Shown: in pieces, positions 5,444-59,090 of the stretch
How positions within the stretch are numbered: position 1 is the stretch's first letter
Layout of the letters: each line of letters opens with the position of its first letter
DNA from: a virus
Lineage: Duplodnaviria; Heunggongvirae; Uroviricota; Caudoviricetes
Direction: 5' to 3' (one strand)
DNA: 64,000 nucleotides
IMG/VR virus record: IMGVR_UViG_3300013121_000049
Coordinates: 80,253-144,252 of that record
Notes under the pieces: generated by a model
Database searches by the model: none
Told to the model about the DNA's origin: nothing
The model's input: the letters and a program-made list of their open reading frames with translations, nothing else
Translations under genes and position numbers: made by a program

Positions 5444-7267
5444 TCAGTACCTGCCGTGTTCGCCTTCACCAAAGGTTTTGCCGAAGATATACGGAGCTAT
5501 GGGATCCGTGGAATGCAGCGGCGATTCCTGAGATTGGGATGCCGCCTCAATGATACTTGATTTTAGGTTAGAAGACGCCAACCGTGAGATCCAGTTGGGG
5601 TCCAGCAGTTTTGACTGCTTGACGCCGGTAGCCATCGGCTCCACGGACAAGCCCGTCGTGGATATCGGCACCTCGTGAATGCCGCGCTGATTGAGTTCGC
5701 GCACATGCTGGTGGTCGAGCAGGGTGCCCGGCATCAGGCTGGATACCCGCCGGGCCAGGACCTTGCCGGCGGCCCGTTCGATCGGTACAACCTGACTGCC
5801 CTTGTCGAACTCGTGCGCCACCTTGCCGACTTCCACGATGTCTCCCGGCAAGAAGTCCGTGTCCCCGGGATTCTTGATCTTGACATACTTGGCGACGTTG
5901 CGGGCGATGACGTCGAAGTGCCGGGGGTCCAGGTCGTTGCCGTAGACTTCTCGCAACTTCTTGGAGAAGTACTCGCGTCCCGCCCCCAGTCCGCGCAGCT
6001 CGACCAACTCCTTGGGATTCGGAGTCCCTTCGGAAAGCTCCTGGCCCGCGTAAACGTGGTCACCTTCCTTCACTTTCAGGCCTTGGTCTTGGGGAACGAA
6101 GTGAGGGATGCCGTTGACGTGGACCTGGAAGTCACCCAGAGCGGTCTTCTCAATCTTGTTAACCTTGCCGGCCGCCGTCGCCAGCGTCGCCGCATCCTGA
6201 AAGTTCTCAGGGATGGTCAGCAGGTTCTTGGATGCCTCGAACATGTTCTGCGTGGCCTTGATCTTGGACCCTGCCGTGCCGCCCTGGTGCTTGGATGAGA
6301 GCACCGCCTGGATCATGCCCTCCGAGATCGACTCTGCCGCCACGACCCCGACATTCTCGCCGATCTCCGGGTAATTGCCCCGGGAGTCCCGGCCGTAACA
6401 CATCTGGCAGATACCTTCGTGGGCCTCGCAGGTCGTCGGCGTGCGGATCGTGATGGTCTTGGTCCCTGAGGAGAGCTTTTCCTTGTAATAGGCGTCGTCC
6501 ACCATGTGATCCGTGCCGGCTTCTACGTGGCCGACGACGCGCCGTCGGTCGTGGACGTCGTAAGGCGTACCGTTCTTGGTCCCGCAATTATGAATAGTGA
6601 CGACCTCGTGGAACACCGAGGGGACCAGCTTCTTGAAAAGAGCGCCGGGCTCGGACGCCGCCATCTGGGCCTTGATCGTCGCCGCTCGGCCGCCGTAGGC
6701 CATGGCCAGGTGTTCGGCCGGCGTCAGACCCTCTGCAAAGGAGTGGCGAATTGGCAGCGGGATAGGCTTGCCCTCGATGTCTACGGACATCATCGGGGAG
6801 AACGTGCCCTGCCCCAGTTGCATGGGGTTGCCGCGCGCGCCGGTCAGCGCCATGAGGCCCGCCGTGGACCCCTTGCTTACCATGTACTTCAAGTTGAGGT
6901 CTTGCGACTTCTTGACGTATTGCCCGGCCACCTCGTTCAACGCCTGAGTTTTCTGGGCGCGCGTCAACTTGGAGTTGTCGTTGATGGCGTTGATCTTGTT
7001 CACGTACTCATCCAGGAAGACGTTGCGCTCCTGGCTGTCGTTCTCGTAGTCGGTGAGCGGCGTGGAAAACCCGTTGACGGTTGCCGTGTGAAAAAACAGG
7101 TTGGAGAGATTCTGGATGGTCTCATGGGCCTGGCTGCCGCCGTGCTTGATGACCAGCGACATGAGGTTCGTCACCCCATTCTTGTCGAGGACCATGTTGG
7201 GGTCATAGTGCTTCTGCACCTCGGGGGGCAGCATGCTCTTGATCAGTAGGGAGCCCGCGGTCGCCAT
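5444..7267 (-). CDS. DNA-directed RNA polymerase beta-prime subunit, C-terminal portion (region F with the bridge helix, and region G with the trigger loop), encoded as a separate polypeptide
   Basis: TGARGNPMQLGQG corresponds to E. coli SGARGSAAQIRQLAGMRG. CEAHEGICQMCYGRDSRGNYPEIGENVGVVAAESISEGMIQAVLSSKHQGG corresponds to the beta-prime block TCxxHGVCxxCYGRDLARG...[24 protein letters not shown]. Confidence 0.9.
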   Translation of the reverse strand: MATAGSLLIKSMLPPEVQKHYDPNMVLDKNGVTNLMSLVIKHGGSQAHETIQNLSNLFFHTATVNGFSTPLTDYENDSQERNVFLDEYVNKINAINDNSKLTRAQKTQALNEVAGQYVKKSQDLNLKYMVSKGSTAGLMALTGARGNPMQLGQGTFSPMMSVDIEGKPIPLPIRHSFAEGLTPAEHLAMAYGGRAATIKAQMAASEPGALFKKLVPSVFHEVVTIHNCGTKNGTPYDVHDRRRVVGHVEAGTDHMVDDAYYKEKLSSGTKTITIRTPTTCEAHEGICQMCYGRDSRGNYPEIGENVGVVAAESISEGMIQAVLSSKHQGGTAGSKIKATQNMFEASKNLLTIPENFQDAATLATAAGKVNKIEKTALGDFQVHVNGIPHFVPQDQGLKVKEGDHVYAGQELSEGTPNPKELVELRGLGAGREYFSKKLREVYGNDLDPRHFDVIARNVAKYVKIKNPGDTDFLPGDIVEVGKVAHEFDKGSQVVPIERAAGKVLARRVSSLMPGTLLDHQHVRELNQRGIHEVPISTTGLSVEPMATGVKQSKLLDPNWISRLASSNLKSSIIEAASQSQESPLHSTDPIAPYIFGKTFGEGEHGRY

Positions 7268-7331
7268 AGTGAAATCTCTCGGGAATGCGTAAATCTTAGC
7301 ACAGCCGTTCGTTCAATTTATCCGCAGGGTT

Positions 7332-7340
7332 TGGCATAAG
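7332..7340 (+). promoter_or_regulatory. promoter-like motif TGGCATAAG, a variant of the recurring TGGTATAAG element
   Basis: Lies 31 nt upstream of the ATG at 7371, at the divergent junction. Confidence 0.35.
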
Positions 7341-7370
7341 GACTATGACCTCAACACAGCGGAGTAAAGC

Positions 7371-7688
7371 ATGCACTTGTTAACTTGGTCTCAGACTTTT
7401 TTCCTGGGCCGTGAACTCGGTCCGGTTTTTCCCATCACCATCCCGGCGGATACCGCCGTGGAAAAAACGCGCGGTATGACGTCTGTCCGCAAGGCAGACT
7501 TCGTCCTGACGGCGCGCGTTGACGGCGCAAAAAACACCTTCAAGGTCTGGATCGATCCTATGAAAGGACTGGTCCTCGTCCTGTCCGGGAAAGCCGGCTA
7601 TGAGCAGGCCGGTCTGTTCTGGACGGCAGACCCGGACAAGGTGGCATCCGTCCTCCGCATCAAAGGGTATTCACCATGCGCCGCCTGA
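7371..7688 (+). CDS. hypothetical protein (105 aa)
   Basis: ORF with a GGAG motif 9 nt upstream. It is the first gene of a small plus-strand island. Confidence 0.5.
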   Translation: MHLLTWSQTFFLGRELGPVFPITIPADTAVEKTRGMTSVRKADFVLTARVDGAKNTFKVWIDPMKGLVLVLSGKAGYEQAGLFWTADPDKVASVLRIKGYSPCAA

Positions 7689-7951
7689 TCTTTTCGTTGT
7701 CCATGCCCAGGGTAAACTCCTGGAACGGCAAGTGGTCCAAGGAAGGCTGCTCCCTGTGGCTTGCCCGTGATGTCCCGGAAGGGCGCGCGGAACAGCTCCT
7801 CAACGAAGGCCCGTTCGATTACGACTTCGGCGACGGCTGGACCGCCCGCATCATTGTTTCCAGCACAGAACCGAAAGAACCATCCACAGGCTTCTGTGGC
7901 TACGACTGGATGGTCGACAGCCTGCTGGCCTGCGGGAGTATCTGCTCCTAG
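7676..7951 (+). CDS. hypothetical protein (91 aa)
   Basis: ORF that overlaps the previous gene by 13 nt. Confidence 0.45.
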   Translation: MRRLIFSLSMPRVNSWNGKWSKEGCSLWLARDVPEGRAEQLLNEGPFDYDFGDGWTARIIVSSTEPKEPSTGFCGYDWMVDSLLACGSICS

Positions 7952-7971
7952 TCATTTTTGACGGAGTAGGT

Positions 7972-7980
7972 TGGTATAAG
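7972..7980 (+). promoter_or_regulatory. promoter-like motif TGGTATAAG (extended -10-like)
   Basis: Exact copy of the recurring motif, 32 nt upstream of the ATG at 8012. Confidence 0.5.
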
Positions 7981-8011
7981 ATAGTACTCAACAAACAAAG
8001 AGGTGGTTAGC

Positions 8012-8224
8012 ATGAACCCTTACCTGAAAGAGATGGAGAAAGTCGCTGGTGTCCTGCAGAACGCGGGCGCTGCAATCAAGAAGCAGCTTACGACTCCCCT
8101 CAAGGTACAAGGGGGCCGCATCGTCAAGCAGATGCACCCCGACGACGAAAAGGCGTTGGCAAAAGCCATCAAGGATAAGATGGCAAATGGTGAAGTAAAG
8201 CACGTCACCGGAATTTTTGATTAA
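8012..8224 (+). CDS. small hypothetical protein (70 aa, Lys-rich)
   Basis: ATG at 8012 preceded by an AAAGAGGTGG ribosome-binding site. It sits between a promoter motif and a terminator. Confidence 0.55.
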   Translation: MNPYLKEMEKVAGVLQNAGAAIKKQLTTPLKVQGGRIVKQMHPDDEKALAKAIKDKMANGEVKHVTGIFD

Positions 8225-8253
8225 AAAGAAAAGGGCCTCGCGCCCTTTTCTTT
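8222..8253. terminator. bidirectional intrinsic terminator (A-tract, AGGGC-ctcgc-GCCCT stem-loop, T-tract)
   Basis: Hairpin at 8232-8246 flanked by AAAAAGAAAA and TTTTCTTT. It lies at the convergent junction with the minus-strand gene 8262..9314. The downstream flank CTTTTCTTTAGCCGRRATTACC is shared with the terminator at 26096-26127. Confidence 0.7.
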
Positions 8254-8261
8254 AGCCGAAA

Positions 8262-9314
8262 TTACCTCCGAAACCCTTTGCTCCCCAGCAACTGGAGCAC
8301 GGACGAAGACAGGTTTGTCCCGATCTTGCTGGCCAGGGAAGGTTTGCTCAGCTCAACGACTTGTCGGGCAACATCCGGGGCCATTCGGCGTGCTTTGCTC
8401 AGTAGGTTGGAGAAGTTTTTCGGGCGGGACTCCGCCCACGGAATACCTAGCCCTTTTGTAACAAAATTGGCCTCCCCTGCCGATTGGCGCCAAGAATTGG
8501 TCAAAGACAAGGGGTGTGTCCCGCTATTCTCCATGGAGTATCGGTCTGCGTCATAAAATATGCCCAGATCTCCTTTTTGCGTGGATTTCACCACTTGTCT
8601 GGCGGACACGGCAGGCGGCACGATGTGGTCATAGGGGTCATGCCCCCTGTCCAGGCTCTCTCTTGCCAGTACTGCAGGGCTGACGTGAGAGTATACCCTG
8701 GGCACCTTATCCAACCCGACGTTAGGACCGTGTTTTTGGAGCAACCGCCTGCTCTCGTCATACTCGTAGAACTCATGACGATGGGCCTTGACATCCTGAA
8801 GCCGGCGAAGGTCCTCTGCCACATTACCGGAGGGACCCAGTAGCGGGGGGACTCGAATGTCTGCGTGCATTACCCCCGTTCCGGGGTGATATGACGTTAC
8901 TTTTGTCTCGTATTGAGCCTTGGGGTGATAGGACTCGTTGATGTTTGTCTTCGGGATAACATTGATAGGGCGAGCTTCATAGGTACGAAGATCCGGGGTA
9001 ACTCCGCCTCTCCGCAGGATTGCATCCGCCATTGCTCGCGTACCTTTGGTTTGCCCCTCAAGGTATTGCGCGGGAGACCGGAGAACCCCTCTGTCTTGCA
9101 ATTCTTGCAGCCGTGACATCGGATATTTTTCCCGGTTATCCGCGATGTGACGGGACAACCTGTTGGCCTCCTTGACCAATGCCTGCCCCTCCTTTGCCCG
9201 CCGGGCCACGCTGAGCGCAATAGCCACTGCCTGCTTCTGCGGCTTACCCGCCGCCATTTCTGTGCGAATATTCTGGGAGATGGCTTCTCGGGAATCGGAG
9301 GGGATCAGCGGCAT
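8262..9314 (-). CDS. hypothetical virion-associated protein (350 aa)
   Basis: Last gene of the long minus-strand structural operon. It ends KGFRR, with its stop next to the terminator. Confidence 0.6.
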   Translation of the reverse strand: MPLIPSDSREAISQNIRTEMAAGKPQKQAVAIALSVARRAKEGQALVKEANRLSRHIADNREKYPMSRLQELQDRGVLRSPAQYLEGQTKGTRAMADAILRRGGVTPDLRTYEARPINVIPKTNINESYHPKAQYETKVTSYHPGTGVMHADIRVPPLLGPSGNVAEDLRRLQDVKAHRHEFYEYDESRRLLQKHGPNVGLDKVPRVYSHVSPAVLARESLDRGHDPYDHIVPPAVSARQVVKSTQKGDLGIFYDADRYSMENSGTHPLSLTNSWRQSAGEANFVTKGLGIPWAESRPKNFSNLLSKARRMAPDVARQVVELSKPSLASKIGTNLSSSVLQLLGSKGFRR

Positions 9315-9477
9315 GACAGCGGTCCTCGTTTACTTGGCGGTTGGCTCTGCTATCGCCTGCTGGGCAGCTCCCATCGTCGAGGAGCCCGGCTGGCGGCGCA
9401 TTGCAGCATTTCTGTTCTTCGTCCTGACCGGGCCTTCCCTGGCGCTGGTCTTGCTATGGGTGGTCCTGCGGTCCTGA
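9313..9477 (+). CDS. possible small membrane protein (54 aa, two predicted transmembrane helices: MTAVLVYLAVGSAIACWAAPIVEEPGWRRIAAFLFFVLTGPSLALVLLWVVLRS)
   Basis: It fills, to the nucleotide, the only large (163 nt) gap in the minus-strand operon. A GGAGGGG motif lies 7-13 nt upstream. Its ATG at 9313-9315 shares a CATG with the minus-strand ATG at 9312-9314. Confidence 0.35.
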   Translation: MTAVLVYLAVGSAIACWAAPIVEEPGWRRIAAFLFFVLTGPSLALVLLWVVLRS

Positions 9478-10746
9478 TCAGACGTGATGCCACTTACGGG
9501 CGTTCAGCGCAAACTGGGCCATGTGACGGAGGTGAGCGTTTTCCGTAGTAGCCAAGACGTGACGCAGGGATTCCTCGGAAATGCGCTCGCCTTGCGGGAC
9601 GCCCATGGCGGCATGGAGGTCGCCCCTGTGCGCGGGGTTAACGGGTTGGAAGTCGGCGGAAGCCTGCTTGCTGATCAGCGGCATACGGTCAAACCGCGCC
9701 TGCGCCCGCGGCGTTCCCGACGCGCCCAGTACAGCGCCCAGCGCGGCTGCTGCGGGGACAGCGTATTTCAACCGAACCCCGGGAATCATGCTCAGGCCTA
9801 CCCCCGTAATACCTCCGGCAAGGGCTCCTGTTGTCGACCGACCCAGCATGGTGGGGCGGTGTACTTCGCTAGGTTGCAGCCACCCTTCCCGGATACCCTG
9901 GTCGATCCGGTGATCCCGGTATACCTGCAGCCCTACGCCCGCAGCCGCTCCACCGAGAGACCCCGCTGCCGCCCATGCAGGGCTGGCGCCGCCTCCCAGC
10001 CAACTGCCCAGCATGCCGCCCCAGATCGCTCCGGAAACTTTGTCAGTATCCCCGGGGTAGACATACTTGACCTGAGGGCGAGAGTCCTCCGCCGACTTGG
10101 TTAGAAATTGCCGAGCCAGCGACAGGGAAGATTGCTTAAAAATACCTGTGTACATGGGATTAAGGCTCCCCGTAGATGGATGGAACGGGAGACTATCTGC
10201 CGCGAGTATTTCTCCCAGGTCTGCCGAAGATGATTTGGCAGTGGCCAAGAGATACTGATCATACTTATGGCGAAGGCTATTCGGAACAGAGTCTTTGTGA
10301 TGAAAAGCCTCCTGGAACTTATCATGGATGCTTCCCTCTCTAAGCCTGGAGGTAAGGTCGCTCTCCAGCTCCGGATACCTCGAATATGCCCCCGCTTGAA
10401 GCGCTGCTTTTCTGGAAGAAATATCGGAAAAATGAGCCTGCATGGCCCGCCAGTCCTCTGGGGTTGGCGAAGCTGCGTGCGTAATCACCGGAGTAGGGCC
10501 GTTCATAAAATTTTTTAAGGGCTCCCGAATAGAGGGAGGGACTTCCCCTATGTCCTTGCGCAAGGCGTCAATCGTACCTGTCGCGTGAGCCAACCCGCCC
10601 CGCAAAGCTCTCCTTCGAAGACTGACCGCAAGCGCCCCTCCCCCCAGCAACGCTCCGCCGGCCAACGCCAAGCCGGGCAGGTTTACAGGCTGGCCATGCT
10701 TGCGCGTGGCTTCCGGCGGAGTATTACGAGAGGACAGGACGCTCAT
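9478..10746 (-). CDS. hypothetical Gly-rich protein (422 aa), possibly an internal virion protein
   Basis: Complete ORF with Gly/Ala-rich hydrophobic stretches. Its start is 2 nt from the upstream stop. Confidence 0.6.
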   Translation of the reverse strand: MSVLSSRNTPPEATRKHGQPVNLPGLALAGGALLGGGALAVSLRRRALRGGLAHATGTIDALRKDIGEVPPSIREPLKNFMNGPTPVITHAASPTPEDWRAMQAHFSDISSRKAALQAGAYSRYPELESDLTSRLREGSIHDKFQEAFHHKDSVPNSLRHKYDQYLLATAKSSSADLGEILAADSLPFHPSTGSLNPMYTGIFKQSSLSLARQFLTKSAEDSRPQVKYVYPGDTDKVSGAIWGGMLGSWLGGGASPAWAAAGSLGGAAAGVGLQVYRDHRIDQGIREGWLQPSEVHRPTMLGRSTTGALAGGITGVGLSMIPGVRLKYAVPAAAALGAVLGASGTPRAQARFDRMPLISKQASADFQPVNPAHRGDLHAAMGVPQGERISEESLRHVLATTENAHLRHMAQFALNARKWHHV

Positions 10747-22975: not shown

Positions 22976-22992
22976 GGTTAGTCCTCTATCAA

Positions 22993-23001
22993 TGGTATAA
23001 G
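22993..23001 (+). promoter_or_regulatory. plus-strand copy of TGGTATAAG in a 28 nt gap between two minus-strand genes
   Basis: Exact motif, but it points into the antisense of gene 23004..23510. It may be coincidental or an antisense promoter. Confidence 0.2.
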
Positions 23002-23003
23002 GA

Positions 23004-23510
23004 TCAGGTCAGCGGAACCACGCGCCAACCGGTCTGACCCCCAACGAAGGTCACCAGGCAGGGGACGCTGATGTCCAGGTAGTAGGGCGCTGCGTCGCCC
23101 TGAATCGGCGCACTCGCCATCAGCTGGACGTTGTTGGTCTCCCAAGTGCCGATCAGGTTACCCGCCTGTCCCCGCGAAAACATCGCCGGGGTGATCAGGT
23201 GGGACGACCCGGACTTGTCGATTGCGTTGGGAAACAGCGTCACCACGATGCCGACCTGCGAGGTATCCGCCGAGATGTTCTCGCCTTCGGCCAGCACCGT
23301 ATCGGAGTTCTTGACCGGGAAGTCGCCGCGAATATCCACCATGGCGTTAGGGGAGATCGGCACGATCTTGCCTTGCCCCTGCGCCGTCTGTACGCTGGGA
23401 TCCTGATACTGCGCGTCGGTCAACGTGACCTTCTGGAGGTAGTTCAGGAACATCGCTCCGCCGAAGAGGCGGATGCCCTCCGTAACGACGCACTGGATGG
23501 ATTGGCTCAT
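23004..23510 (-). CDS. hypothetical structural protein (168 aa); first gene of the minus-strand structural operon
   Basis: ORF with a GGAGG ribosome-binding site. Confidence 0.6.
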   Translation of the reverse strand: MSQSIQCVVTEGIRLFGGAMFLNYLQKVTLTDAQYQDPSVQTAQGQGKIVPISPNAMVDIRGDFPVKNSDTVLAEGENISADTSQVGIVVTLFPNAIDKSGSSHLITPAMFSRGQAGNLIGTWETNNVQLMASAPIQGDAAPYYLDISVPCLVTFVGGQTGWRVVPLT

Positions 23511-23560
23511 GGGTACCTCCGGGCTACCTTTCCATTTTACAGCAGCGAAGAGGGGAATCC

Positions 23561-23818
23561 ATGTTCACCGACGCTGATATGCAGTTCATCCGCCGCCTGA
23601 AGGCCGGACAAATCGCCTGGGACGACCTCCCCGTCATCCTACAAGACACGTTGTTCGAATTCTTTCAGCCAAACATGCCCTACACTATTCAGAAAGCCAG
23701 GGACGACGATCCCGTCAACTGGATGACCAGACGCCTGCACTGGATTACGCACGATGGCCCGTCTCATGTCCTCCCGCCAGTTCAAGCACTGGCTGAATAC
23801 CTCCGTCCCTCACCGTAG
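23561..23818 (+). CDS. hypothetical protein (85 aa)
   Basis: ORF with a GAGGGG ribosome-binding site. It is the first gene of the plus-strand island. Confidence 0.5.
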   Translation: MFTDADMQFIRRLKAGQIAWDDLPVILQDTLFEFFQPNMPYTIQKARDDDPVNWMTRRLHWITHDGPSHVLPPVQALAEYLRPSP

Positions 23819-24062
23819 CGAGGCCGCCAACCAGCTCTTTGCCCGGGCGGTGGACAACGGCCGAACGATGGCCGAACAATTCCAGCACGAGCTGAGCGCG
23901 GATCGCCCGTTGGCGTTCACCGTACCCGGCCATGCCTTTTCCGTCGCCATGACGGCGTCATCCTACCTGATTTCCTACCGGTTCCTCGACGAAAGCGTCT
24001 GGACCGGTCAATCCCCGCTCCGCACGCACCGCAGCCTGGTGCTGGTGGAGCGCCGACCATGA
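23754..24062 (+). CDS. hypothetical protein (102 aa)
   Basis: Protein-like ORF that overlaps the previous gene by 65 nt in another frame. The ribosome-binding site is weak and the start is uncertain. Confidence 0.35.
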   Translation: MARLMSSRQFKHWLNTSVPHRSEAANQLFARAVDNGRTMAEQFQHELSADRPLAFTVPGHAFSVAMTASSYLISYRFLDESVWTGQSPLRTHRSLVLVERRP

Positions 24063-24069
24063 GGACTCC

Positions 24070-24414
24070 ATGAGCCAAGCCGACAAATATTTCTGGTTCC
24101 CGCACATCGACCGCATCACTCCCGACTACCCCGGATATACGGGGACCATCGAGACCAAGCACCTGCCTACCCTCCCGGGATACTGGGTAGTCCACCCGGA
24201 GAAGGGCTACCTGTTCTATCGCCTGTACATGGGCCCCAAGGGCGAAGTCACTGCGATGGTCAACGGCGATGAACGCACGGCCGAACGATTGCTCCTCTGG
24301 CTGAAACGACAGCCGATTCCCGGAATCGAAGACGCCCACCTGGCCTTCGTGCAGACAGGCTACTGCGAAAAAGCCTACCTCCACTTCCCTCACCACAAGG
24401 AAATCCCTTCATGA
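24070..24414 (+). CDS. hypothetical protein (114 aa)
   Basis: ORF with a GAGGA ribosome-binding site. It overlaps the DHH gene start as ATGA. Confidence 0.55.
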   Translation: MSQADKYFWFPHIDRITPDYPGYTGTIETKHLPTLPGYWVVHPEKGYLFYRLYMGPKGEVTAMVNGDERTAERLLLWLKRQPIPGIEDAHLAFVQTGYCEKAYLHFPHHKEIPS

Positions 24415-25319
24415 ATACCTCTCCCAAAACGGTCATCGTCTACCACGACAAATGCTTCGACGGCCTGGGCGCCCTGTGGGCCGTCCTGCGCAACCTGGAC
24501 TTCTCCGAAGACCTGGACGACGAAATCAACGACGGGTTGCTGATCCTACACGCCGCCAACTACGGTCAAGAACCGCCCGACGTCGCCGGCTGCGATGTCA
24601 TCATGGTGGACTTCAGCTATCCCCGCGACGTCATGGAACAGCTGATTGCCGATGCCAACTCCTTCATCTGCCTCGACCACCACAAGACCGCGCAGGAAGC
24701 GTTGGCTGGCCTTCCCGGCTGCCACTTCGACATGGACCAAAGCGGAGCCGGCATGGCCTGGCGGCACTTCGCCAAGCAGAGTGCCATGACTCCTTACTTC
24801 CTTTCCTACATCGAGGACCGCGACATCTGGCGCAAGGCGCTGCCTTGGACGGAGGAGGTCAATGCCTACATCGGCAGCATCGTCGACTTTGGCAGACCGG
24901 TGTTGGAAAACCTCTACGCCTTCGACCGCATCCAGGATATGACACCGCAGGAGATGGCGGGGATCGGCGGCCCGCTGCGTCGCGTCAACCTCAGCCACGT
25001 CGAATCCTGCGCGTCCATGTGGTTCTTCGTCACCCTGAAGAACGGCGTCGAGCTTCCCTGCGTCCTGGGCACGGCCAAGGTGGCCAGCGAAGTCGGCAAC
25101 CTGCTGTGCGCACACACCGACCTGGCCACGGCACTGGTCATCACCAGCGGCGGCGCCGGTCGCTTCGGCATGAGCTTCCGCTCGACGGCAGGAAAAGCAG
25201 CCGAACTGGCAAAACTGTACGGGGGCGGCGGTCACCTGAACGCGGCCGGCGCCAGCCTGGGGCCTGACGAGATCGGCGCCCTGCTGGCCACCCGGCGCGA
25301 GCGTCCGGAAAGTCAATAA
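24411..25319 (+). CDS. DHH-DHHA1 family phosphoesterase (NrnA or RecJ-like nanoRNase, or a cyclic or linear oligonucleotide phosphodiesterase)
   Basis: DHH motif FICLDHHKT. DHHA1 motif LYGGGGHLNAAGAS. Asp-rich N-terminal motifs (VYHDKCFDGLGA, VIMVDFS). Confidence 0.85.
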   Translation: MNTSPKTVIVYHDKCFDGLGALWAVLRNLDFSEDLDDEINDGLLILHAANYGQEPPDVAGCDVIMVDFSYPRDVMEQLIADANSFICLDHHKTAQEALAGLPGCHFDMDQSGAGMAWRHFAKQSAMTPYFLSYIEDRDIWRKALPWTEEVNAYIGSIVDFGRPVLENLYAFDRIQDMTPQEMAGIGGPLRRVNLSHVESCASMWFFVTLKNGVELPCVLGTAKVASEVGNLLCAHTDLATALVITSGGAGRFGMSFRSTAGKAAELAKLYGGGGHLNAAGASLGPDEIGALLATRRERPESQ

Positions 25320-25332
25320 CCGACAGGCCGAT

Positions 25333-25341
25333 TGGTATAAG
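25333..25341 (+). promoter_or_regulatory. promoter-like motif TGGTATAAG
   Basis: Lies 112 nt upstream of the small ORF at 25453. The leader contains the hairpin GGAGCctggtGCTCC. Confidence 0.45.
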
Positions 25342-25452
25342 GAGAATAGAGAGGAGCCTGGTGCTCCGATTACCCACGTCAAGCCTGAGCGTGGGGCCGC
25401 CGTCCGTGCCGATATCGAGCAACGGGTTGTCAGATGCTAAAGGAGCATAATC

Positions 25453-25581
25453 ATGGCCTACTTCACTATCATTACCACGTCCCTGCAAGTGATCACTGTT
25501 GCTGCAGCGTCTTTCCGCGACGCCATAACGGGGGCGGAAGCGCAGGGATACAAGGTCTCAGAATGCCGGGAGGCACGCTAA
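25453..25581 (+). CDS. small hypothetical protein (42 aa)
   Basis: A strong AAAGGAG ribosome-binding site lies 7 nt upstream of the ATG. A terminator follows immediately. Confidence 0.4.
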   Translation: MAYFTIITTSLQVITVAAASFRDAITGAEAQGYKVSECREAR

Positions 25582-25583
25582 GA

Positions 25584-25617
25584 CCGCGCCCCTCTTCGGA
25601 GGGGCGTTCACTTTTTT
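25584..25617 (+). terminator. intrinsic terminator (GCGCCCCTC-ttcg-GAGGGGCG followed by TTCACTTTTTT)
   Basis: A 9 bp GC-rich stem followed by a T-tract. Confidence 0.65.
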
Positions 25618-25645
25618 ACCCGCAACTTTCATTCCGGAGAAAGTC

Positions 25646-26095
25646 ATGAGCATCTCTTTCCTGCAGTTCTGGCTGCTCTGCGGACTGGCTACCCTCGCGG
25701 TGAGCCTGTTTGCATCGGCCTATGTCTTCGCCCGGGCGGTATCCGACCGGGCGGAATCCCTGCGCGGCGTCCGCTTGGGCGTCGTCGCCAACCTGGCTGT
25801 GGTCGTTTCGTCCACGATCATCTGCCTCATCGGCGGGCCGCTGGCGCTGGCGGCCTGCCTCACCCCGGCGACATGGAGATCCTGCCGGATGATTGCCTGC
25901 CACCCTCGCTTCAATGCGAGGGACGTATTGACCACGCTGGTGGTGGTCAAGGTCAAGGACGAGTACGTCATGGCGGATCAGAACCTCAGCCCCAACCCGC
26001 TGGACGGCGAGGTGTATACCTTGCCTGACGCCAGACGGCGCTATAAGCACGAACGCTACCAGTTCGTGCCGTTAGACCGCATCAAGGCGGTCTAA
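25646..26095 (+). CDS. membrane protein (149 aa) with an N-terminal transmembrane domain and a soluble C-terminal domain
   Basis: GGAGA ribosome-binding site. Hydrophobic N-terminus. It is the last gene before the bidirectional terminator. Confidence 0.6.
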   Translation: MSISFLQFWLLCGLATLAVSLFASAYVFARAVSDRAESLRGVRLGVVANLAVVVSSTIICLIGGPLALAACLTPATWRSCRMIACHPRFNARDVLTTLVVVKVKDEYVMADQNLSPNPLDGEVYTLPDARRRYKHERYQFVPLDRIKAV

Positions 26096-26127
26096 CGAAA
26101 AAGGCCCCGCAATGGGGCCTTTTCTTT
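26096..26127. terminator. bidirectional intrinsic terminator (AGGCCCC-gcaat-GGGGCCT with A- and T-tracts)
   Basis: Lies at the convergent junction between the plus-strand island and the 3' end of the RNA polymerase gene. It shares the CCTTTTCTTTAGCCGRRATTACC flank with the terminator at 8222-8253. Confidence 0.75.
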
Positions 26128-26135
26128 AGCCGGGA

Positions 26136-29100
26136 TTACCCGAGAGGTCGGACCCCATTGCTGACATCCGCCGGCGCGCTCATGCCCGCCTGGCTCTGGT
26201 ACTCGAAGGTCGTCTTCGAAAGGAAGTCCTCGACGCCCTGCGGGTAGAACTCGCTGGGCGGCAGGATGTACGGCGCGCTCTTCGGGTCGCCCTCGGCGTG
26301 GTTGTGGCTGACCGACTCGCCCGAAGCCTGCTTGTGGTGACTGCCGATGACGACCTCCTGGTTCTCGTGGACCTTGCCGGCCTTGAGCGCCGCCACGGCT
26401 TCCGCCTCTGTGGCGAAGTGCACGGTCTTCTGCGTCTCGTCCTTGCTGGTCAGATGTACGCTGCCCAGGATGGCCTCGTGGCCGGGCGCAAACATCGAGT
26501 AGCCGTAGCCCTTGCGCACGTCGTTGATGTGGTGCATTGGCAGCAGCTTGGCCTTGGCCTCGGCGATGGCTTCCGGCGTCATCGGCAAGTGCATGGTCAT
26601 GGCGTCGCCGTCGAAGTCCGCGCCGAACGCCGGCAAGTGCAGCGGATTCAGGCCGATCGTGTTTTCCTTGGTCGGCACCGGATAGATGGCCAGCTCGTTA
26701 GTCCGCAGCAGGGTCGGCGCGCGGTTCAGCAGCAGCGGGATGTCCTTGATGCAGCGGTTGAACGCATAGGTCGCCAGGTTGTCGCGCTTGGTGTAGGAAT
26801 CCAACGCCTCGGGCATCGACATGCCCTGCTTCGCCAGGAAACGCAGGATGTGGTACTTGTAGAGCACCCACAGCTGGTCCACCGGGATGCGGGCCTCGTT
26901 GAAGCCGACATCCGGGGCAGCATAGATCGTCGCCCGTCCCGAGAAGTTCTGCTTGCGCGCCAGCAACCGGTCATGAAACACCCCGGTCTTCGGCCCGCCT
27001 TCCCCGGCGATCTGCTTGATGAACCCCTTCAGCGGCTTCTTGGCGCCGATGTTGTCGCCCAAACCCATGATGGCCGCTGCGCCCTGATAGAGGTCCTTGC
27101 GCATGGGCACCAGGGCATCCGGCGTCGAATCCGCGAGGTTCTTCTTCAGGGTCTTGCTGACCAAGATGTGATCGTTGTACAGGTTGTTGACGTCCGCGAA
27201 GTGCAGACTGCCGCCGCCCTGATCCATGAAGGGGCGCATGACCGGGGGCAGCACGGGCATGTGCTTGATGACGTAGGCGTCCGCCGGGTTGGAGAATCCG
27301 CTCTTCTGCAGGCCGCGCAGGTACTTGGCGCGCTTCACCTCGTCATCTCGCGCCGATACCGACTTCAGGTTGACGGCGTTGTGCACGGAGGTCTTCAGCG
27401 CCTCGTCGACATCGATGTTGGCCAGCAACTCCTTGAACGCCTCGCCGCCCACCTTGATCTTGTCGTCGTTGTAGGCTTCGTCGGCGTCCGCCTTCTTGGT
27501 CATGCCGACACCGGTCTTGCCGATGTGAATATCCCGGACCTTGGACTGGTTCAGCGTGTCGTAGAGGCCGTAGTGTCCCGGCGCAATCTTCTGCACGCCG
27601 TAAGAGCCGTCAGTCAGCCGATCGAACTCGTCCGCGCTCAGCTTGAGCACCGACTTCACGGGCATCTCGAAGGTAGGGTTCACGATGGGCTCGGCCAACG
27701 TGTAGTGCGACCACTTGGTGCCCTCCGGGCCGCCGGTAATGATGGGGTCGAACATGCCGCCTTTCTCAGGCTGCAGGGTGCGCGCCAACAGGCGGCCCTC
27801 GTTGACCTCGCCGCCGCTCATCTCCAGGATCTTGTGGTCGGTCAGCGGGGCCAGCGTCACTTTGTCGTTGGCCGTGCGCACATCGATGCCGGCGCCCTTC
27901 AGGTAGCCCAAGAACTTGTCGGTGGCAAAGGTCGTCTTCGGCTTGGGAAGCGGCTCGCCATTCTGGAAGGCCTTCCAGAACTCCTCGTTCTTCTCGGCCT
28001 TGATGGTCGACATCTCCTGCAGGTTCTTGCGGGCGTTGGACCCCAGCAAGGCCAGGAATTCCATGTAGGCCGTCCGCTTGGATCCCTCTTCCCCGCCCTT
28101 GGACGGCTGGCGCCAGGAGTCATAGCCACCCTCGACGTTGCGGGCGCTGTAATTGGAGTCCGTGGTCTTGTAGGTCTTGACCACGTAATGCGGGCCGCCG
28201 AAGACCTTGGGCAACACCTTGCCGGAGACCGGATCCACCAGCACGTCATGCTGCTTGAGCCCGTGCGCCTTCAGCTCGTCCTTGATCTTGCGGACAGAGT
28301 CCCCGGCGTTCTCATAGTTGTGGACCACATACTGCTTGCCCGTCTTCTGGGCAATGCGACCGGCCGCCGTCTCCAGGACCGATCCCAGGTTGATCCGGGA
28401 GGTGACCGAAGCCGGGTTGAAGATGGCGTCGACGGGTTTCCCCGTCTCCTGGTTATAGGGCATCTGCTCGTCCGGGACGATCTTGGAGACCACGCCCTTG
28501 TTGCCATGAAAGCCGGTCAGCTTGTCGCCTACCTCCAGGTGCTTCACCGAGCGCGTCAGGATGCGAACCTCCTTGCCATCGGTGTGGGCCTCGATGACCT
28601 CGCCGGGCTCCTCGTGCGTCCAGTACTCCACGACTGCCAGGTACGGGGAAACCAGCTGCTTGCTGATGCGGTGGTACATCAGGTCGGTCGTGCTCATCGT
28701 GCGCGGCTTGAGCACCGCCCAGATGGGATCGCCGTAGCGCAGGGTCTGGCCTTTCTGGATGAAGCCGCGACTGTCCAGCTTGGCCAGCTGGTCGGACTTC
28801 AGCAGGGACGGGAACGTCTTGCGGAACAGCGCCCGATCGGTCTTCATGTCCGTCGTCAGGGACAGGTCGTACTTGTAGGCGTGGTGGCTGGACAGCTTCT
28901 CGGCCGCGCCTTGGCTGACCACGATGCCGTCTTCATGGTTGAAGCCGTGGTACGGCATGAAAGCCACGTTCAGGTTGCGGCCCAGCGCCAGTTCCCCGCC
29001 GCGCGTGTAGTTGCTGTCGTACAGGGACTGCCCCTTCTCGACGCGATCGCCCACCTTGACCAGCGGGGCCTCATCATCGCGGAACCCCTTCTGGTTGTAT

Positions 29101-30905
29101 GGCAGGTTGACCACGCGGGCGACCTTGGCCGTCTTCCCGTCATCCCCGCGGATCTCCATCCCGGTGTCGGTGATCTTGCTCACCGTGCCGCTCACCGGGC
29201 TGATCGTGGTCATGATCTTCCCATAGACCTTGGTGAACGGGACCTCCCTGCCGTTCCGGTCACGGGTGGCCGTGGTTACCAGCGGCGCCTCGCGGTCCTT
29301 CAGGGAGAGCGCCTGGACGATGGCCTTGCCCGCCATGGTCAGACGACCCGGATGGTCGGCGTTCATGAACGGCACCAGGTTGGTGGTGACCGTGTACATG
29401 TCCGTCGGCTTCTCCACCCAGTACTGGACCTTGGACTCCGGGACGTTCTTCAGGACGCCGTGATCCTGGGCCTGCACCAAGCCGTTCTTCTTGCCGATCG
29501 TGAACCCGATGCAAGCGTTCATGATCTGGGACGCCGACAGGTAGACCGAGCGCCCCTTGGTGTCCTTGAACCGGCCGTAAAGGTTGCCCTTGGCGTCGCG
29601 CGCCGAGTTGATGGCAAAGCGCAAGTCGACGCCCACCGTGTCGGCTTCCGGCGTCCGGCTGGGATCCAGGATGGTCAGGTGGGACGGGTCAATGTTGCGC
29701 GTCCGGACGTTGTTGGCTTTCTGCAGATCGATGCCGCCTTCCCCCTCGCCCAGAACGGTGACCTTGGCCACGTTCTCCAGGGACTCGATGGGGTTGGTTT
29801 CCGACGGCACGATCGACAGCGTGGACTTGGTCAGGAAGTTCTGCATGACCTTGTTGTAGGGCTTGGAGACCACGACCTTGCGGATCTTCGGCGTCTCCTT
29901 GGACAAGACGGCGCGGTCCAGCCCCCACTTGATCTTGCGGCTGGCGTCGCTGACGTTCTCGTGTTCGCGGCCCTGTTCAAACCGCCGGGCAATCAGGTCC
30001 GGGTAGCTCACGACCCGCTTGAACTGCAGGGAGTCGCGGTTGTCTTCCTCGCGCTCGCCCTTGTGGATGGCGATGATGTTGGCGGCGATACGCAGCAGGG
30101 CATCGCCATCCAGATGCCCAAAGGACTTGCCCAGGGTGACCTTGGTGCCGTCTTCATCCAGGGTACGCTTCTCCAGCCCGACCTTGATCCACTTGATCTT
30201 CTCGGCTTGCGCGGGGTCCGGGTTGGCCTTGCGCTGCTCGTACGGAGCCACCTTGCGATACAGGCGGTTGGCGATGCCGTCGCTATCCCCGGACTCCATC
30301 AGATCCTTGTCCCAGATGGCCGTGGGAATGTAGGCGGACGCTTTCTGCCGGTCGATGCCGAAGACGTGGCTGAGCACCCAGACCAGCGGCACGTTGATGT
30401 CGCCGCTGCTCAGGATCAACGTCTGCTTGCGCGGGTCCAGGGACACTTCCAGGGAGCCGCCGCCGGAGTTGATCTGGGCCATGACAGCGCCGTTGCTGCG
30501 CCGACGATGGTAGACGCCCTCCTTGAGCTGCAGGAGGTGGGAGATGACGTAGTTGTTGCCCTTGTAGACGACCGTGTGCTTGTCCGTCAGGTGAAAGCAG
30601 TCGGCCAGGGCGTAGTTCTTCTCTTCGTCGACCGTCTTCCCCGTCTGCTTGTCGATGATGCGCAGGGTGCCGCGCACCGGGAACGTCAGGGACTTCGATT
30701 CCAGGATCGCCTTCTTTTCGTCTTCCTTGTCGAACGTCTTGCGATCGATCGTGATGTCCGAGACCTCGATACGGTAGCGGGCGTTCTCGATGGGGAACTG
30801 CTTGCGCACGCCATCCACGATGGCCTGGCAAACATCGTTCAGCGTGCTGTCCGGAGACGAGATCATGTGCTTCAGCGGCTTGCCGTCGAGACTGGTCAGG
30901 CTCAT
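26136..30905 (-). CDS. DNA-directed RNA polymerase: a complete beta-like subunit fused to the N-terminal half of beta-prime (through the NADFDGD catalytic region), 1589 aa
   Basis: Beta-subunit blocks: [12 protein letters not shown] (compare GYNFEDSILVSE), [25 protein letters not shown] (compare [25 protein letters not shown]), and LGEGEGGID...TPEADTVGV. Beta-prime blocks: [16 protein letters not shown] and [25 protein letters not shown]. The start is at the ATG that forms an ATGA overlap with the upstream stop; a GTG at 30914 is an alternative. Confidence 0.92.
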   Translation of the reverse strand: [1589 protein letters not shown]

Positions 30906-31330
30906 AGTTGCCACCCCTCACCCGGTTCCTCGTCTTTCTTCGGCGTCTCGAAGACCACGCCCTCGTAGGGCGCATCCTTCGGCTCCAGATACGTCAGGAC
31001 GACGATCATCTCGCCCTCCTTGTTGAAGGATTCCTTGCGGTCCACCAGGTAGATCCGCGTGGTCTCCGAGTGGATACAGGCGTCCAGCAGGCTCTCCAGC
31101 ATCAGTTCCTGCTCGGCAAACCCGGACAGCAGGAACCGCTTGACCCGGAGCTTGTAGTCGGCCAGTTTGAACCCGGCCCGGCCGGGAGCCTTGTCCTTTA
31201 CCGCGGCTTCCTCGTCAAGGTTGCGCAGGGTGACCCCCGGCATGGCTGCCGAATAGTCCTGCAGACCGACTCCCGCGTTCTCCGGAAGGTTGGGGGCATT
31301 GACCCCCGGCGTCTTGTCACGCGGCGGCAT
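30902..31330 (-). CDS. hypothetical acidic protein (142 aa), translationally coupled to the RNA polymerase gene
   Basis: ORF 30902..31381, trimmed to the Met after the GGAGGA ribosome-binding site. Its stop overlaps the RNA polymerase start. Confidence 0.5.
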   Translation of the reverse strand: MPPRDKTPGVNAPNLPENAGVGLQDYSAAMPGVTLRNLDEEAAVKDKAPGRAGFKLADYKLRVKRFLLSGFAEQELMLESLLDACIHSETTRIYLVDRKESFNKEGEMIVVLTYLEPKDAPYEGVVFETPKKDEEPGEGWQL

Positions 31331-43086: not shown

Positions 43087-43147
43087 CTGGCCCCCGGAGC
43101 CCGAGGATAACGAGGATGACTCGTTAGACCTCGATGTCGTGGGCTGA
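43070..43147 (+). CDS. small acidic peptide (25 aa) MQAHINWPPEPEDNEDDSLDLDVVG
   Basis: Paralogue of the 41179 peptide. It overlaps the end of gene 42451..43086 in another frame. It is also antisense to the last 24 nt of the sigma factor gene. A terminator follows. Confidence 0.3.
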   Translation: MQAHINWPPEPEDNEDDSLDLDVVG

Positions 43148-44032
43148 CTCAACGACGGCCTCCTCCGGGAGGCCTTTTTTTACATAGAATTGCCGGATCT
43201 TGCGCATGGCCGCAGTCTGCAGACGACGGACCTCGGACACCGTGCACCCCATATCCTGAGACAGCTGACTGATACTCTGCTTGGCCGCGCCGGCCAGCTC
43301 GAACATCGCCGAAATGACGCGCCACTCCCGAGAGGAAAGCATGGCCTGCAGGCGCCCGCACAAGAGGTCGTCATCCATGCTCTGGATGAGGTCATCTGAG
43401 AAGTCGGCCACCGTGAGGGGGGCCAGGGTAATGTCTGATCGCGCAACGGCGTCATCAATGTCGGCAGAGGAGTGGCGAGAGGAGTGTGAAGACAGGATGC
43501 CGCGGAGGATGTCATCGATGTAGACGGTGACGTACAGGGTCTTTCGCAAGTTGGCGATGATCTCCGTACTGGTGGATGGCGCGCACCGCTGCTGAAGCTC
43601 GACATCCGTGATCCTGGGTTCCTTGGCCAGGATGTCGCGTATCTTCACGGCAAGCTGCTGCTGCCACACGGGGAGCTTGACCAGCCTGAGCTTCTGCTGC
43701 GTCCGCCACTGGCACTGGTTTACCCACCACCCGGCGTAGGTCAGGAACTTGTGCCCGCGCTTGTAGTCGAACCGCGACAGGGCGATACACAGACCTTCGT
43801 TCCCCGCCGCCACCAGTTCTTCGAACTCATAGGCACCCAGTTTACGAGCACGCAGCTTGGCCTGCTTGGCGACAAACATGATGCACGACCGGACGATCTT
43901 GTCGCGGGCCGCATCCTTTTTCCAGCGCGGCGCTTCCGGATCCTCCAGTGTGGCGAACAGAGACTGCTCCTCCTCCCGGCTCAAGGGCTTTTGTTTTGAA
44001 ACCAGGGTGAAATAGGAGGATATTGGATCCAC
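43124..44032 (-). CDS. sigma-70 family RNA polymerase sigma factor (302 aa)
   Basis: Region 2: IMFVAKQAKLRARKLGAYEFEELVAAGNEGLCIALSRFDYKRGHKFLTYAGWWVNQCQWRT, which has the FSTYATWWIRQAI-type pattern. Region 4: SSREWRVISAMFELAGAAKQSISQLSQDMGCTVSEVRRLQTAAMRKIR. The start is a GTG with a weak ribosome-binding site, so it is uncertain. Confidence 0.85.
   Translation of the reverse strand: MDPISSYFTLVSKQKPLSREEEQSLFATLEDPEAPRWKKDAARDKIVRSCIMFVAKQAKLRARKLGAYEFEELVAAGNEGLCIALSRFDYKRGHKFLTYAGWWVNQCQWRTQQKLRLVKLPVWQQQLAVKIRDILAKEPRITDVELQQRCAPSTSTEIIANLRKTLYVTVYIDDILRGILSSHSSRHSSADIDDAVARSDITLAPLTVADFSDDLIQSMDDDLLCGRLQAMLSSREWRVISAMFELAGAAKQSISQLSQDMGCTVSEVRRLQTAAMRKIRQFYVKKGLPEEAVVESAHDIEV
43157..43181 (+). 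terminator. intrinsic terminator (GGCCTCC-tccg-GGAGGCC followed by TTTTTTT), located inside the 3' coding region of the convergent sigma gene
   Basis: A 7 bp stem followed by a T7 tract. On the opposite strand the same bases encode ...KKGLPEEAVV of the sigma factor. Confidence 0.65.
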
Positions 44033-58634: not shown

Positions 58635-59090
58635 ATGCTAGGGGGACTGTCCGACTGGACCCTCCCCATGCCCGCCATCGACACGAACCAGCCAGCCCTT
58701 ATCGGTGGGCAAACCGCAGTATTCATCCGCCAGGACCAGATCGGCCCTAACGTGGTCCTGTACTTTTGCAAACAGTCGTCGATCGAGGTGTCCCCTTTCA
58801 AGATCGACGGCACGCCGTACAGCGCCGGAGACATCGCCTTGATGGGGTTGTCCGGTGTAGCCAGCGATTCCCCGGTAGCCAATGGCAGCGCCAATACCGA
58901 CACGATCTACATCGTGATGCGGCGCGGCTCCTACAAGGTGGTCCATGATTTGAAGGAGGTGCTCGCCGAGAGCACCTTGCTCGGTGTTCGTCCGGAGGGG
59001 CTTCTTGAACTGCAGGTGGGACTGCTCAACGAAGCCCCGACGGCGATTCTCAGCGCGGAAGTGCTCAACGTCGATTCCGTCTTGCACTAG
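58635..59090 (+). CDS. hypothetical protein (151 aa), encoded between the two DNA polymerase fragments
   Basis: ORF 58563..59090, trimmed to the ATG at 58635. The ribosome-binding site is weak. Confidence 0.4.
   Translation: MLGGLSDWTLPMPAIDTNQPALIGGQTAVFIRQDQIGPNVVLYFCKQSSIEVSPFKIDGTPYSAGDIALMGLSGVASDSPVANGSANTDTIYIVMRRGSYKVVHDLKEVLAESTLLGVRPEGLLELQVGLLNEAPTAILSAEVLNVDSVLH

Follow-up and report, generated by a model that had tools for sequence, protein, structure and literature searches.

A conserved slot with a DHH/DHHA1 phosphoesterase, a predicted short-oligonucleotide exonuclease, between the tail and RNA polymerase operons of a Caudoviricetes genome

Large phages and giant viruses commonly encode DHH phosphoesterases, whose role is debated: they may recycle nucleotides or process DNA, or they may destroy immune messengers. 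NrnB (COG2404; B. subtilis YngD, H. pylori NrnB) is a stand-alone DHH-DHHA1 protein with 3'-5' exonuclease activity on short RNA, and three NrnB proteins left c-di-AMP uncleaved; a helical linker is typical of these proteins, and those without a C-terminal extension prefer short RNA (PMC12709177). RecJ combines a catalytic core with an OB fold and C-terminal domains, exceeding 550 aa, and NrnA has been defined by an RxRxR motif in DHHA1 (PMC9779919). Among viral enzymes, a preprint describes mimivirus R106 and one phage DHH protein as blocking 3'3'-cGAMP signalling, and R106 as degrading many messengers in vitro (bioRxiv 10.64898/2026.07.21.739742). The locus presented here opens no new kind of system; its protein family, PHROG 4771, and a cyclic-nucleotide anti-defence prediction had already been published. 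What it contributes is a clean three-gene module, conserved across a phage clade with its own RNA polymerase, and a Cys that the whole family carries in its first metal-binding motif.

The window analysed is a 64,000-nt stretch (positions 80,253 to 144,252 of IMG/VR record IMGVR_UViG_3300013121_000049). As a reading of the sequence alone had described (hereafter, the sequence-only reading), six plus-strand ORFs form an opposite-strand block at 23561-26095 between two minus-strand operons, with an internal unit of promoter, small ORF and terminator, and with a closing terminator that folds on both strands. One flank is the tail operon, with a 953-aa tail sheath gene (phrog_15433, 1.4e-79), and the other is the 1592-aa gene of an RNA polymerase beta + beta'-N fusion. 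The features of the block are the following:

23561..23818, plus strand: ORF1, 85 aa, lineage-specific
23754..24062, plus strand: ORF2, 102 aa
24070..24414, plus strand: ORF3, 114 aa, ORFan
24411..25319, plus strand: DHH/DHHA1 phosphoesterase, 302 aa (phrog_4771, motifs, fold)
Motif residues of the 302-aa protein: H12-x-x-C15-x-D17-G18; D67; D89-H90-H91; D136/D138; S255-x-R257-S258; G272-G-G-H275
25312..25341, plus strand: promoter-like element GTCAAT-N18-TATAAG with a TG-extended -10, in TTGGTATAAG, conserved ahead of the 42-aa ORF in all five genomes
25342..25452, plus strand: leader of ~110 nt with hairpins, the Shine-Dalgarno sequence lying in a hairpin loop
25453..25581, plus strand: ORF5, 42 aa
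25586..25616, plus strand: intrinsic terminator after ORF5, a 9-bp GC-rich stem followed by a T-run (-19.1 kcal/mol, z -3.9)
25646..26095, plus strand: ORF6, 149 aa, two-helix membrane protein
26098..26127, both strands: bidirectional intrinsic terminator common to ORF6 and the converging RNA polymerase gene

The exact protein sequences of all six ORFs are present in public collections as called genes, and the third-position GC frame plot tracks the six called frames. At the nucleotide level, positions 23000-27000 gave zero matches in the phage collection, and no RNA family was detected in the block by an Rfam scan. Searches of ORF1, ORF2, ORF3, ORF5 and ORF6 against Pfam, PHROG, NCBIfam and PADLOC returned no credible match; zero PADLOC-DB profiles matched any of the six ORFs, a result uninformative on counter-defence, given that PADLOC models cover defence systems.

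According to its profile match, the 302-aa protein is a member of the already catalogued phage family PHROG 4771 (E 5e-57, residues 5-292 on profile positions 16-292 of 363), with homologues in 121 phage records and in more than 4000 metagenomic clusters. Profile searches were required for comparison with known structures, as a single-sequence search of the PDB gave noise only. The Pfam DHHA1 model scored 26.1 bits against a cut-off of 25.9, and the DHH N-terminal domain scored 25.8 bits (E 1.4e-5), below its cut-off of 28.1; the latter is a marginal miss, the predicted fold and the motifs agreeing with a DHH domain. The assignment as a DHH/DHHA1 enzyme held, and the protein has the DHH, motif II, motif IV and GGGH residues, which do not vary within the family. 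Residues H12, C15, D17, D67, DHH89-91, D136/D138, R257 and GGGH272-275 are unchanged among 55 aligned homologues, and nearly so in a 13-sequence alignment of cultured-phage members; motif III (D89-H90-H91) is invariant in both alignments, as reported also for D67 of motif II (VDFS) and for the DHHA1 G272-G273-G274-H275, whereas in motif IV (DRD-W) both D136 and D138 are invariant among the 55 sequences and D138 alone among the 13. Motif I reads H12-x-x-C15-x-D17-G18 throughout the family with an invariant Cys, so that C15 apparently replaces the first Asp of the canonical DxD, an equivalence drawn from spacing and partial alignments to 6mtz and 2eb0, not from superposition. In NrnB, judged by the YngD sequence, the motif is DxD, in contrast to the CxD of this family. 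Compared with L084, a 96%-identical sister genome, the gene displays 37 synonymous and 20 non-synonymous differences.

The AlphaFold2 model of the protein (pLDDT 94.9) contains a 23-residue helical inter-domain linker at residues 179-201, and only 27 residues follow GGGH. Among known systems it is close to the members of PHROG 4771 (e.g., Pseudomonas phage EL gp125, CcrColossus gp070, Serratia phage 2050HW gp261 and PaBG gp298), which share a similar length, the two-domain fold with a helical linker and the same motifs (H-x-x-C-x-D-G, VDFS, DHH, DRDLW, SLRS, GGGH); identity is 23-34% to the aligned cultured-phage members and reaches 38.5% with an uncultured 485-kb phage, the top record of the phage database. 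By fold, NrnA and GdpP rank below HAN, the RecJ core and a DHH protein of H. pylori. The best Foldseek match was 6mtz, an uncharacterised H. pylori protein that is also the best DHH-domain sequence match, at 13-14% identity, and that shares with NrnB and with the window protein the stand-alone DHH-DHHA1 architecture, the helical linker and the short C-terminus. With respect to the RecJ core, archaeal HAN and RecJ-Cdc45 (GAN), identity is 13-17%, and the window protein is at most half their size and carries neither the OB fold nor other extra domains, so the full RecJ architecture is not matched. It also belongs to the same superfamily as the NrnA/GdpP/Pde2/PggH/CdnP branch, with DHH and GGGH motifs and profile matches to their DHHA1 domains at 1e-8 to 1e-11. 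The NrnA-like option of the sequence-only reading was nevertheless discarded, as the equivalog NF053633 scored 17.8 bits against a cut-off of 350 and the RxRxR motif is missing (S-F-R-S, with a single Arg). A GdpP-type c-di-AMP phosphodiesterase was rejected as well, the 302 aa comprising DHH and DHHA1 only, without transmembrane helices, PAS or degenerate GGDEF, and the DHH/DHHA1 fold excludes Acb1 (2H), Apyc1 (MBL) and AcrIII-1 (DUF1874).

The gene neighbourhoods of homologues differ from that of the window, where the DHH gene lies between the tail-sheath and RNA polymerase operons together with the 42-aa and membrane protein genes, and not by ligase, RNase H or SbcCD. DNA ligase is found directly upstream or within ~1.3 kb of the homologue in EL, 2050HW, L090 and L093; RNase H is adjacent in EL and ~2.3 kb away in CcrColossus; the PaBG homologue lies between SbcC and SbcD; and that of L091 is within a PolA-ThyA-DHFR-dCMP deaminase-RdgC-SNF2-dUTPase cluster. 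Across 57 non-redundant IMG/VR loci, recurrent neighbours were C5 methylases, SNF2 helicase, dNMP kinase, DUF2303, PolA and primase-polymerase, along with integrase and repressor. BLAST clustering of the neighbours of these 57 homologues revealed no single conserved partner gene; the link to ligase and RNase H is therefore based on inspection of about ten loci and is not a statistical result.

The helical linker, these neighbours (DNA ligase, RNase H, SbcCD, polymerase) and the JGI/IMG name of several homologues (COG2404 'oligoribonuclease NrnB/cAMP/cGMP phosphodiesterase'; the window protein itself carries no name) favour an exonuclease of short oligonucleotides. Neighbourhood and fold evidence points to oligonucleotides as the substrates to consider first, and we give about even credence to an exonuclease of NrnB / RecJ-core type acting on short oligonucleotides, for which we infer substrate, polarity and biological role. 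Such an enzyme would depend on divalent metal and would convert short single-stranded RNA or DNA oligomers, from di- to penta-nucleotides and perhaps longer, into mononucleotides; in the infected cell, it could complete the degradation of oligonucleotides that stem from the host or from primers, so that they can be reused, or, alternatively, trim replication and recombination intermediates. The sequence-only reading had named two outcomes that would speak against its own proposal. Regarding the first, a loss of catalytic residues, these are present apart from the Cys in motif I, where CxD apparently takes the place of DxD; regarding the second, a RecJ-like exonuclease function, this is the direction suggested by the fold ranking of the model, by two papers and by the gene neighbourhoods in other phages.

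That proposal, the degradation of host signalling nucleotides, is unsupported by anything found here, and had been published previously as a prediction for jumbo-phage DHH proteins (PMC7824862). In its broader form, the enzyme would be a counter-defence phosphodiesterase acting on CBASS cyclic di-/trinucleotides, type III CRISPR cyclic oligoadenylates and c-di-AMP, with the 42-aa and membrane proteins as possible host-interaction factors, and we consider it rather unlikely. Besides that prediction and the activities described for R106 and one phage DHH protein, it draws on giant-virus DHH proteins matching the model at TM 0.70-0.77, on the position of the gene in a variable slot and, elsewhere, under a sigma-70-like extended -10 promoter, and on the neighbouring 42-aa gene, which shows 34% nucleotide divergence between 96%-identical genomes. 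The preprint also places the viral enzymes R106 and Ph-DHH-3B in the DHH-DHHA1 class, as here, and in its groups 4 and 5 the two domains are joined by an ordered helix, as in the window model (bioRxiv 10.64898/2026.07.21.739742). Against this function, three NrnB proteins did not cleave c-di-AMP, and EL gp125 (YP_418158 = Ph_DHH_7B), which belongs to the family of the window protein, was included in the cGAMP/STING inhibition panel, but the two DHH proteins reported as positive do not include it (bioRxiv 10.64898/2026.07.21.739742). A bolder version, quite doubtful in our estimation, would make the DHH, 42-aa and membrane proteins a joint counter-defence or host-takeover module, in which the Cys-variant enzyme breaks down immune signals made of cyclic or linear oligonucleotides and the 42-aa and two-helix membrane proteins hit other steps, e.g., membrane effectors; separately, the motif I Cys may set apart a DHH subfamily, common to phages and giant viruses, whose chemistry relies on a different metal or is redox-controlled.

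Two further functions were weighed against the oligonucleotide exonuclease. The PDB matches include 8a8k, an archaeal phosphatase of pAp (3'-phosphoadenosine 5'-phosphate; best Foldseek TM 0.53-0.54), and family II pyrophosphatases, and ATP-dependent ligases adjoin the homologues in L090 and L093, which would fit PPi removal; a pAp phosphatase or, as known among other DHH members, a pyrophosphatase/exopolyphosphatase, easing product inhibition in infection, e.g., by PPi from ligase or polymerase reactions, appears very unlikely to us even so. A non-catalytic scaffold like Cdc45, an inactive DHH fold organising a replication or transcription complex, is highly improbable: apart from the motif I position, all metal- and substrate-binding residues are invariant across sequences just 23-57% identical, which is unexpected for a dead enzyme.

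The DHH protein, the 42-aa protein and the two-helix membrane protein occupy the same slot in five related genomes, and for this reason the block is not a simple recent insertion. The term accessory island, used in the sequence-only reading, is therefore apt for the variable ORF1-ORF3 and not for this trio. The variable content consists of ORF1-3 in the window, a 164-aa gene in the sister strain L084 and a ~460-aa gene in L002/L003; in L004, a further relative, and in the cultured Salmonella phage Arash, other genes occupy the slot. We interpret the block as a conserved transcription slot, placed where genes converge downstream of the phage RNA polymerase gene; its core would be formed by the DHH/DHHA1 phosphoesterase, the membrane protein and the 42-aa protein, the last with a promoter and terminator of its own, and lineage-specific genes bounded by promoters and terminators would come and go around it.

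ORF1 is 100% identical in L084 and absent in L002, L003 and L179, and no homologues were found beyond near-identical genomes. Its GC3 is 0.77 outside the 65-nt overlap with ORF2, and the coding signal moves to the ORF2 frame at ~23742; GC3 of ORF2 is 0.80-0.82, the overlap included, and its public call is 98 aa, which would start at 23766. Selection is unreadable for both genes in the comparison with L084 because they show zero differences. ORF3 differs from its L084 counterpart by 18 synonymous and 2 non-synonymous changes, and only itself was recovered among 5.8 billion clusters; acylphosphatase matches (E 0.018) were dismissed as chance. Its stop overlaps the DHH start (ATGA), and translation of the two genes is therefore probably coupled. 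No promoter was found in this window for ORF1 to DHH, and promoters of the type preceding ORF5 lie upstream of DHH in L002, L003 and L179, and upstream of a small-gene cluster in L004.

The ORF5 unit of promoter, leader, ORF and terminator resembles phage 'morons', which are inserted between operons with their own promoter and terminator; unlike them, it is kept in five genomes and is not a sporadic insertion. The promoter 10-mer has 6 copies in the window, all on the plus strand, versus 0.9 expected. Because it extends into the start codon and differs from the conserved site, a candidate from a consensus scan (25427-25454) was set aside in favour of the TTGGTATAAG element. As a separate observation, a TTGGTATAAG-like site at 22992, antisense to a 168-aa gene, is without a -35-like box and is not shared by relatives; it is possibly a chance match. 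Promoter and leader are present twice in L084, giving three copies, and the fold energy of the window leader is no better than that of shuffles (z -0.34). ORF5 has exactly 42 codons in the window, L084, L002, L003 and L179, with 10 invariant residues. Relative to L084, it shows 11 synonymous and 15 non-synonymous differences, with 23 of the 44 changes at third codon positions; on this comparison, it is fast-evolving.

ORF6 is, as the sequence-only reading had it, a membrane protein, with two N-terminal hydrophobic helices followed by a C-terminal domain of ~75 aa. Weak profile matches were dismissed as chance, and homologues are confined to this phage clade, always after DHH and the 42-aa ORF; the gene accumulates 35 synonymous and 7 non-synonymous differences relative to L084. 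The hairpin that closes the block (A5-GGCCCC-GCAAT-GGGGCC-T4CT3) has the A-run and T-run at its sides and folding energies of -17.4 kcal/mol on the plus strand and -18.7 on the minus strand. In L084, the 164-aa gene is flanked by a copy of the ORF5 promoter-leader and closed by a near-identical copy of this same ORF6 terminator.

The slot between the minus-strand tail and RNA polymerase genes, whose plus-strand genes a sequence-only reading had called an accessory island, varies between genomes; yet the DHH gene, the 42-aa ORF5 and the two-helix membrane protein ORF6 (hereafter the trio) are a core conserved in five genomes and not a recently inserted element.

Features of the block and its right flank (window coordinates)
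23561-23818, + strand, ORF1, 85 aa
23754-24062, + strand, ORF2, 102 aa
24070-24414, + strand, ORF3, 114 aa
24411-25319, + strand, DHH, 302 aa
25312-25341, + strand, putative promoter-like element of the extended -10 type upstream of ORF5 (GTCAAT-N18-TATAAG, within TTGGTATAAG)
25453-25581, + strand, ORF5, 42 aa
25586-25616, second terminator, after ORF5 (-19.1 kcal/mol, z -3.9)
25646-26095, + strand, ORF6, 149 aa
26098-26127, both strands, bidirectional terminator (A5-GGCCCC-GCAAT-GGGGCC-T4CT3)
26136-30914, - strand, RNA polymerase beta fused to the N-terminal half of beta', 1592 aa

Using the RNA polymerase gene as anchor, together with exact-protein look-ups, we compared the slot among related genomes. 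L002, L003 and L179 carry the DHH gene, a 42-aa ORF and a two-helix membrane protein of ~160 aa in the order, strand and slot of the window, flanked by a homologue of a 168-aa gene and by the polymerase (72% identical to that of the window in L002 and L003). ORF1-3 are absent from all three; L002 and L003 bear an extra gene of ~460 aa, and L179 has none. The sister genome L084 contains ORF1-3 and an additional 164-aa gene between DHH and ORF5. In L004 (polymerase identity 64%) the slot has no DHH, its place being taken by five paralogous small genes, and in the cultured phage Arash (49%) it is filled by five different opposite-strand genes; in more distant relatives, DHH was not found within 10 kb of the polymerase. 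The L004 paralogues (8585-10173, 65-83 aa) share the N-terminus MNLIRSNLQYL and HAWRDDL-like tails, and are accompanied by a 76-aa gene. The ORF6 family is confined to this phage clade, and DHH is always present with it.

The exact products of all six ORFs are called as genes in public assemblies (contigs of 141-144 kb), GC3 is 0.75-0.84 for ORF2, ORF3, DHH and ORF6, and the third-position GC plot matches exactly the six ORF frames; within the 65-nt overlap of ORF1 and ORF2 the coding signal is that of ORF2, to which it switches at about 23742. The sister genome L084 matches the window at 95.9% identity through the DHH gene, and at 86.8% past it. As a test of selection between the two, synonymous and non-synonymous differences number 18 and 2 in ORF3, 37 and 20 in DHH, 35 and 7 in ORF6, and 11 and 15 in ORF5. 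ORF1 and ORF2 (window 23561-24062, L084 6748-7249) are 100% identical and so leave no differences to count, although adjacent genes and flanks differ by 3-7%; this 500-bp segment may therefore have been exchanged or swept recently. Within the block ORF5 evolves fastest, with a 34% nucleotide difference between genomes otherwise about 96% identical; its length and ten invariant residues are kept in the five genomes, and its promoter and leader are highly conserved despite this divergence.

The L084 164-aa gene (L084 8507-9315), absent from the window, is preceded by a second ~130-nt copy of the ORF5 promoter-leader through ATGGCC, and the terminator shared by ORF6 and the RNA polymerase gene recurs behind it in near-identical form. 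The unit is a gene cassette assembled from copies of regulatory parts present locally; either the window lost it, most simply by recombination between the two leader copies, or L084 gained it. Neither this turnover of cassettes by way of copied promoter-leaders and terminators nor the conserved trio was found in the literature searched.

The DHH enzyme is a new addition to a phage family that has already been described and annotated, matching phrog_4771 ('DHH phosphoesterase') at 5e-57, with Pfam DHHA1 slightly over the cut-off and DHH slightly under. By tblastn, homologues occur in 121 phage records, mostly of jumbo phages (phiCbK-like, EL-like, 2050HW-like, PaBG, RP12, Xanthomonas phages) and also of ~50-kb Vibrio phages, all at 38.5% identity or less; 4274 clusters of a large protein collection match at E <= 0.001, and many IMG/VR contigs of 35-65 kb carry a match. 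Missing catalytic residues, which the sequence-only reading had named as grounds against it, are not what the alignment shows: H12, C15, D17, G18, D67, D89-H90-H91, D136, D138, R257 and G272-G-G-H275 are invariant in 55 homologues and shared by the members from cultured phages. One qualification is that the family carries CxD in motif I, at the position probably equivalent, judging from spacing and partial alignments, to the DxD of DHH enzymes; this family-wide Cys was not found in the literature searched. In the confident AlphaFold model (pLDDT 94.9), a 23-residue helix joins two lobes. A Foldseek search of the PDB retrieved DHH-DHHA1 enzymes only (11-19% identity), with 6mtz, an uncharacterised protein from H. 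pylori, at the top, and the best viral models were giant-virus and jumbo-phage DHH proteins (TM 0.67-0.77).

An NrnA-like function, one of the options first proposed, was not sustained, as the protein failed the NrnA equivalog and lacks the RxRxR motif (as defined in PMC9779919). NrnB proteins (COG2404) act 3'-5' and left c-di-AMP uncleaved; they have a helical linker and, where a C-terminal extension is missing, prefer short RNA (PMC12709177). As the most likely function, we give roughly even chances to a metal-dependent exonuclease of the NrnB or RecJ-core type acting on short single-stranded oligonucleotides, which would serve nucleotide recycling or the trimming of replication and recombination intermediates. 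Destruction of immune messengers as counter-defence seems a good deal less probable; the support for it in this analysis consists of the promoter-driven placement in a variable slot and the rapid evolution of a neighbouring gene. Such a role was predicted for jumbo-phage DHH proteins in 2021 (PMC7824862), and a July 2026 preprint assayed a panel of DHH proteins from viruses, in which 3'3'-cGAMP signalling was blocked by mimivirus R106, which degraded many messengers, and by a single phage protein; the phrog_4771 member YP_418158 (EL gp125) was in that panel and was not reported positive (bioRxiv 10.64898/2026.07.21.739742). A small-molecule phosphatase is improbable beside these two readings, and a dead scaffold retaining the DHH fold without activity would be very surprising.

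Elsewhere, DHH homologues lie directly downstream of DNA ligase or within about 1.3 kb of it (EL, 2050HW and the phage loci L090 and L093), beside RNase H (adjacent in EL, about 2.3 kb off in CcrColossus), between SbcC and SbcD (PaBG), or within a cluster that encodes PolA, thymidylate synthase, DHFR, dCMP deaminase, RdgC, SNF2 and dUTPase (L091). No single partner recurs in 57 non-redundant IMG/VR loci, where the commonest neighbours are C5 methylases, SNF2 helicase, dNMP kinase, DUF2303, PolA and primase-polymerase, plus integrase/repressor. In Serratia phage 2050HW (L089) and Klebsiella phage KpLz-2_45 (L097) no more than 2-3 kb separate the gene from a tail-sheath operon on the opposite strand, as in the window, which may reflect old synteny or coincidence.

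In the window, a minus-strand tail operon lies to the left of the block. Its 953-aa product hits a PHROG for tail sheath (1.4e-79), and genes beyond that one match tail fibre and minor tail families. The replication genes (helicase, primase, split PolA, exonuclease, MazG-like enzyme) lie at 37-62 kb, distant from the block, and local context is therefore uninformative on DHH function. The family A DNA polymerase comprises two + strand ORFs (57098-58630 and 59474-61132) about 850 bp apart, and the gap holds two minus-strand ORFs (58638-59415) with lower GC3 and no Pfam match. The RNA polymerase is of the multisubunit type, with the C-terminal portion of beta' (Pfam Rpb1 domain 5) encoded 19 kb from the fusion, and a sigma-factor-like gene is also present (26136-30914, 5444-7267 and 43124-44032, all - strand). 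Its closest cultured relatives are those of Salmonella phage Arash and Vibrio phages D69, D181 and D148, and relatives at 30-38% identity occur on hundreds of metagenomic contigs.

The hairpin at 26098-26127 (-17.4 kcal/mol on the + strand, -18.7 on the - strand) lies between the ORF6 and polymerase stop codons and is therefore a bidirectional terminator; the terminator scanner, by prolonging the stem into the A and T runs, overlooked it. The promoter-like element upstream of the 42-aa ORF is kept in the window, L084, L002, L003 and L179; the same type precedes the DHH gene itself in the last three and the replacement genes in L004. A TTGGTATAAG-type element was looked for upstream of ORF1 in the window, as promoter of ORF1-ORF3 and DHH, and none was found. 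Allowing one mismatch, TTGGTATAAG occurs at six extended -10-like sites (7331, 7971, 22992, 25332, 40681 and 46390), all on the + strand, against 0.9 expected, a count reached in 0 of 100 shuffles. A TTCAAT, GTCAAT or GTCATT box usually lies 17-18 nt upstream, and short + strand gene units begin downstream of several sites; TTGGTATAAG appears to define a class of phage promoter that serves short + strand units and the beginning of the replication cluster. A second such unit between minus-strand operons (7331-8250; ORFs of 105, 91 and 73 aa) has the same architecture as the block, with two TTGGTATAAG elements as putative drivers.
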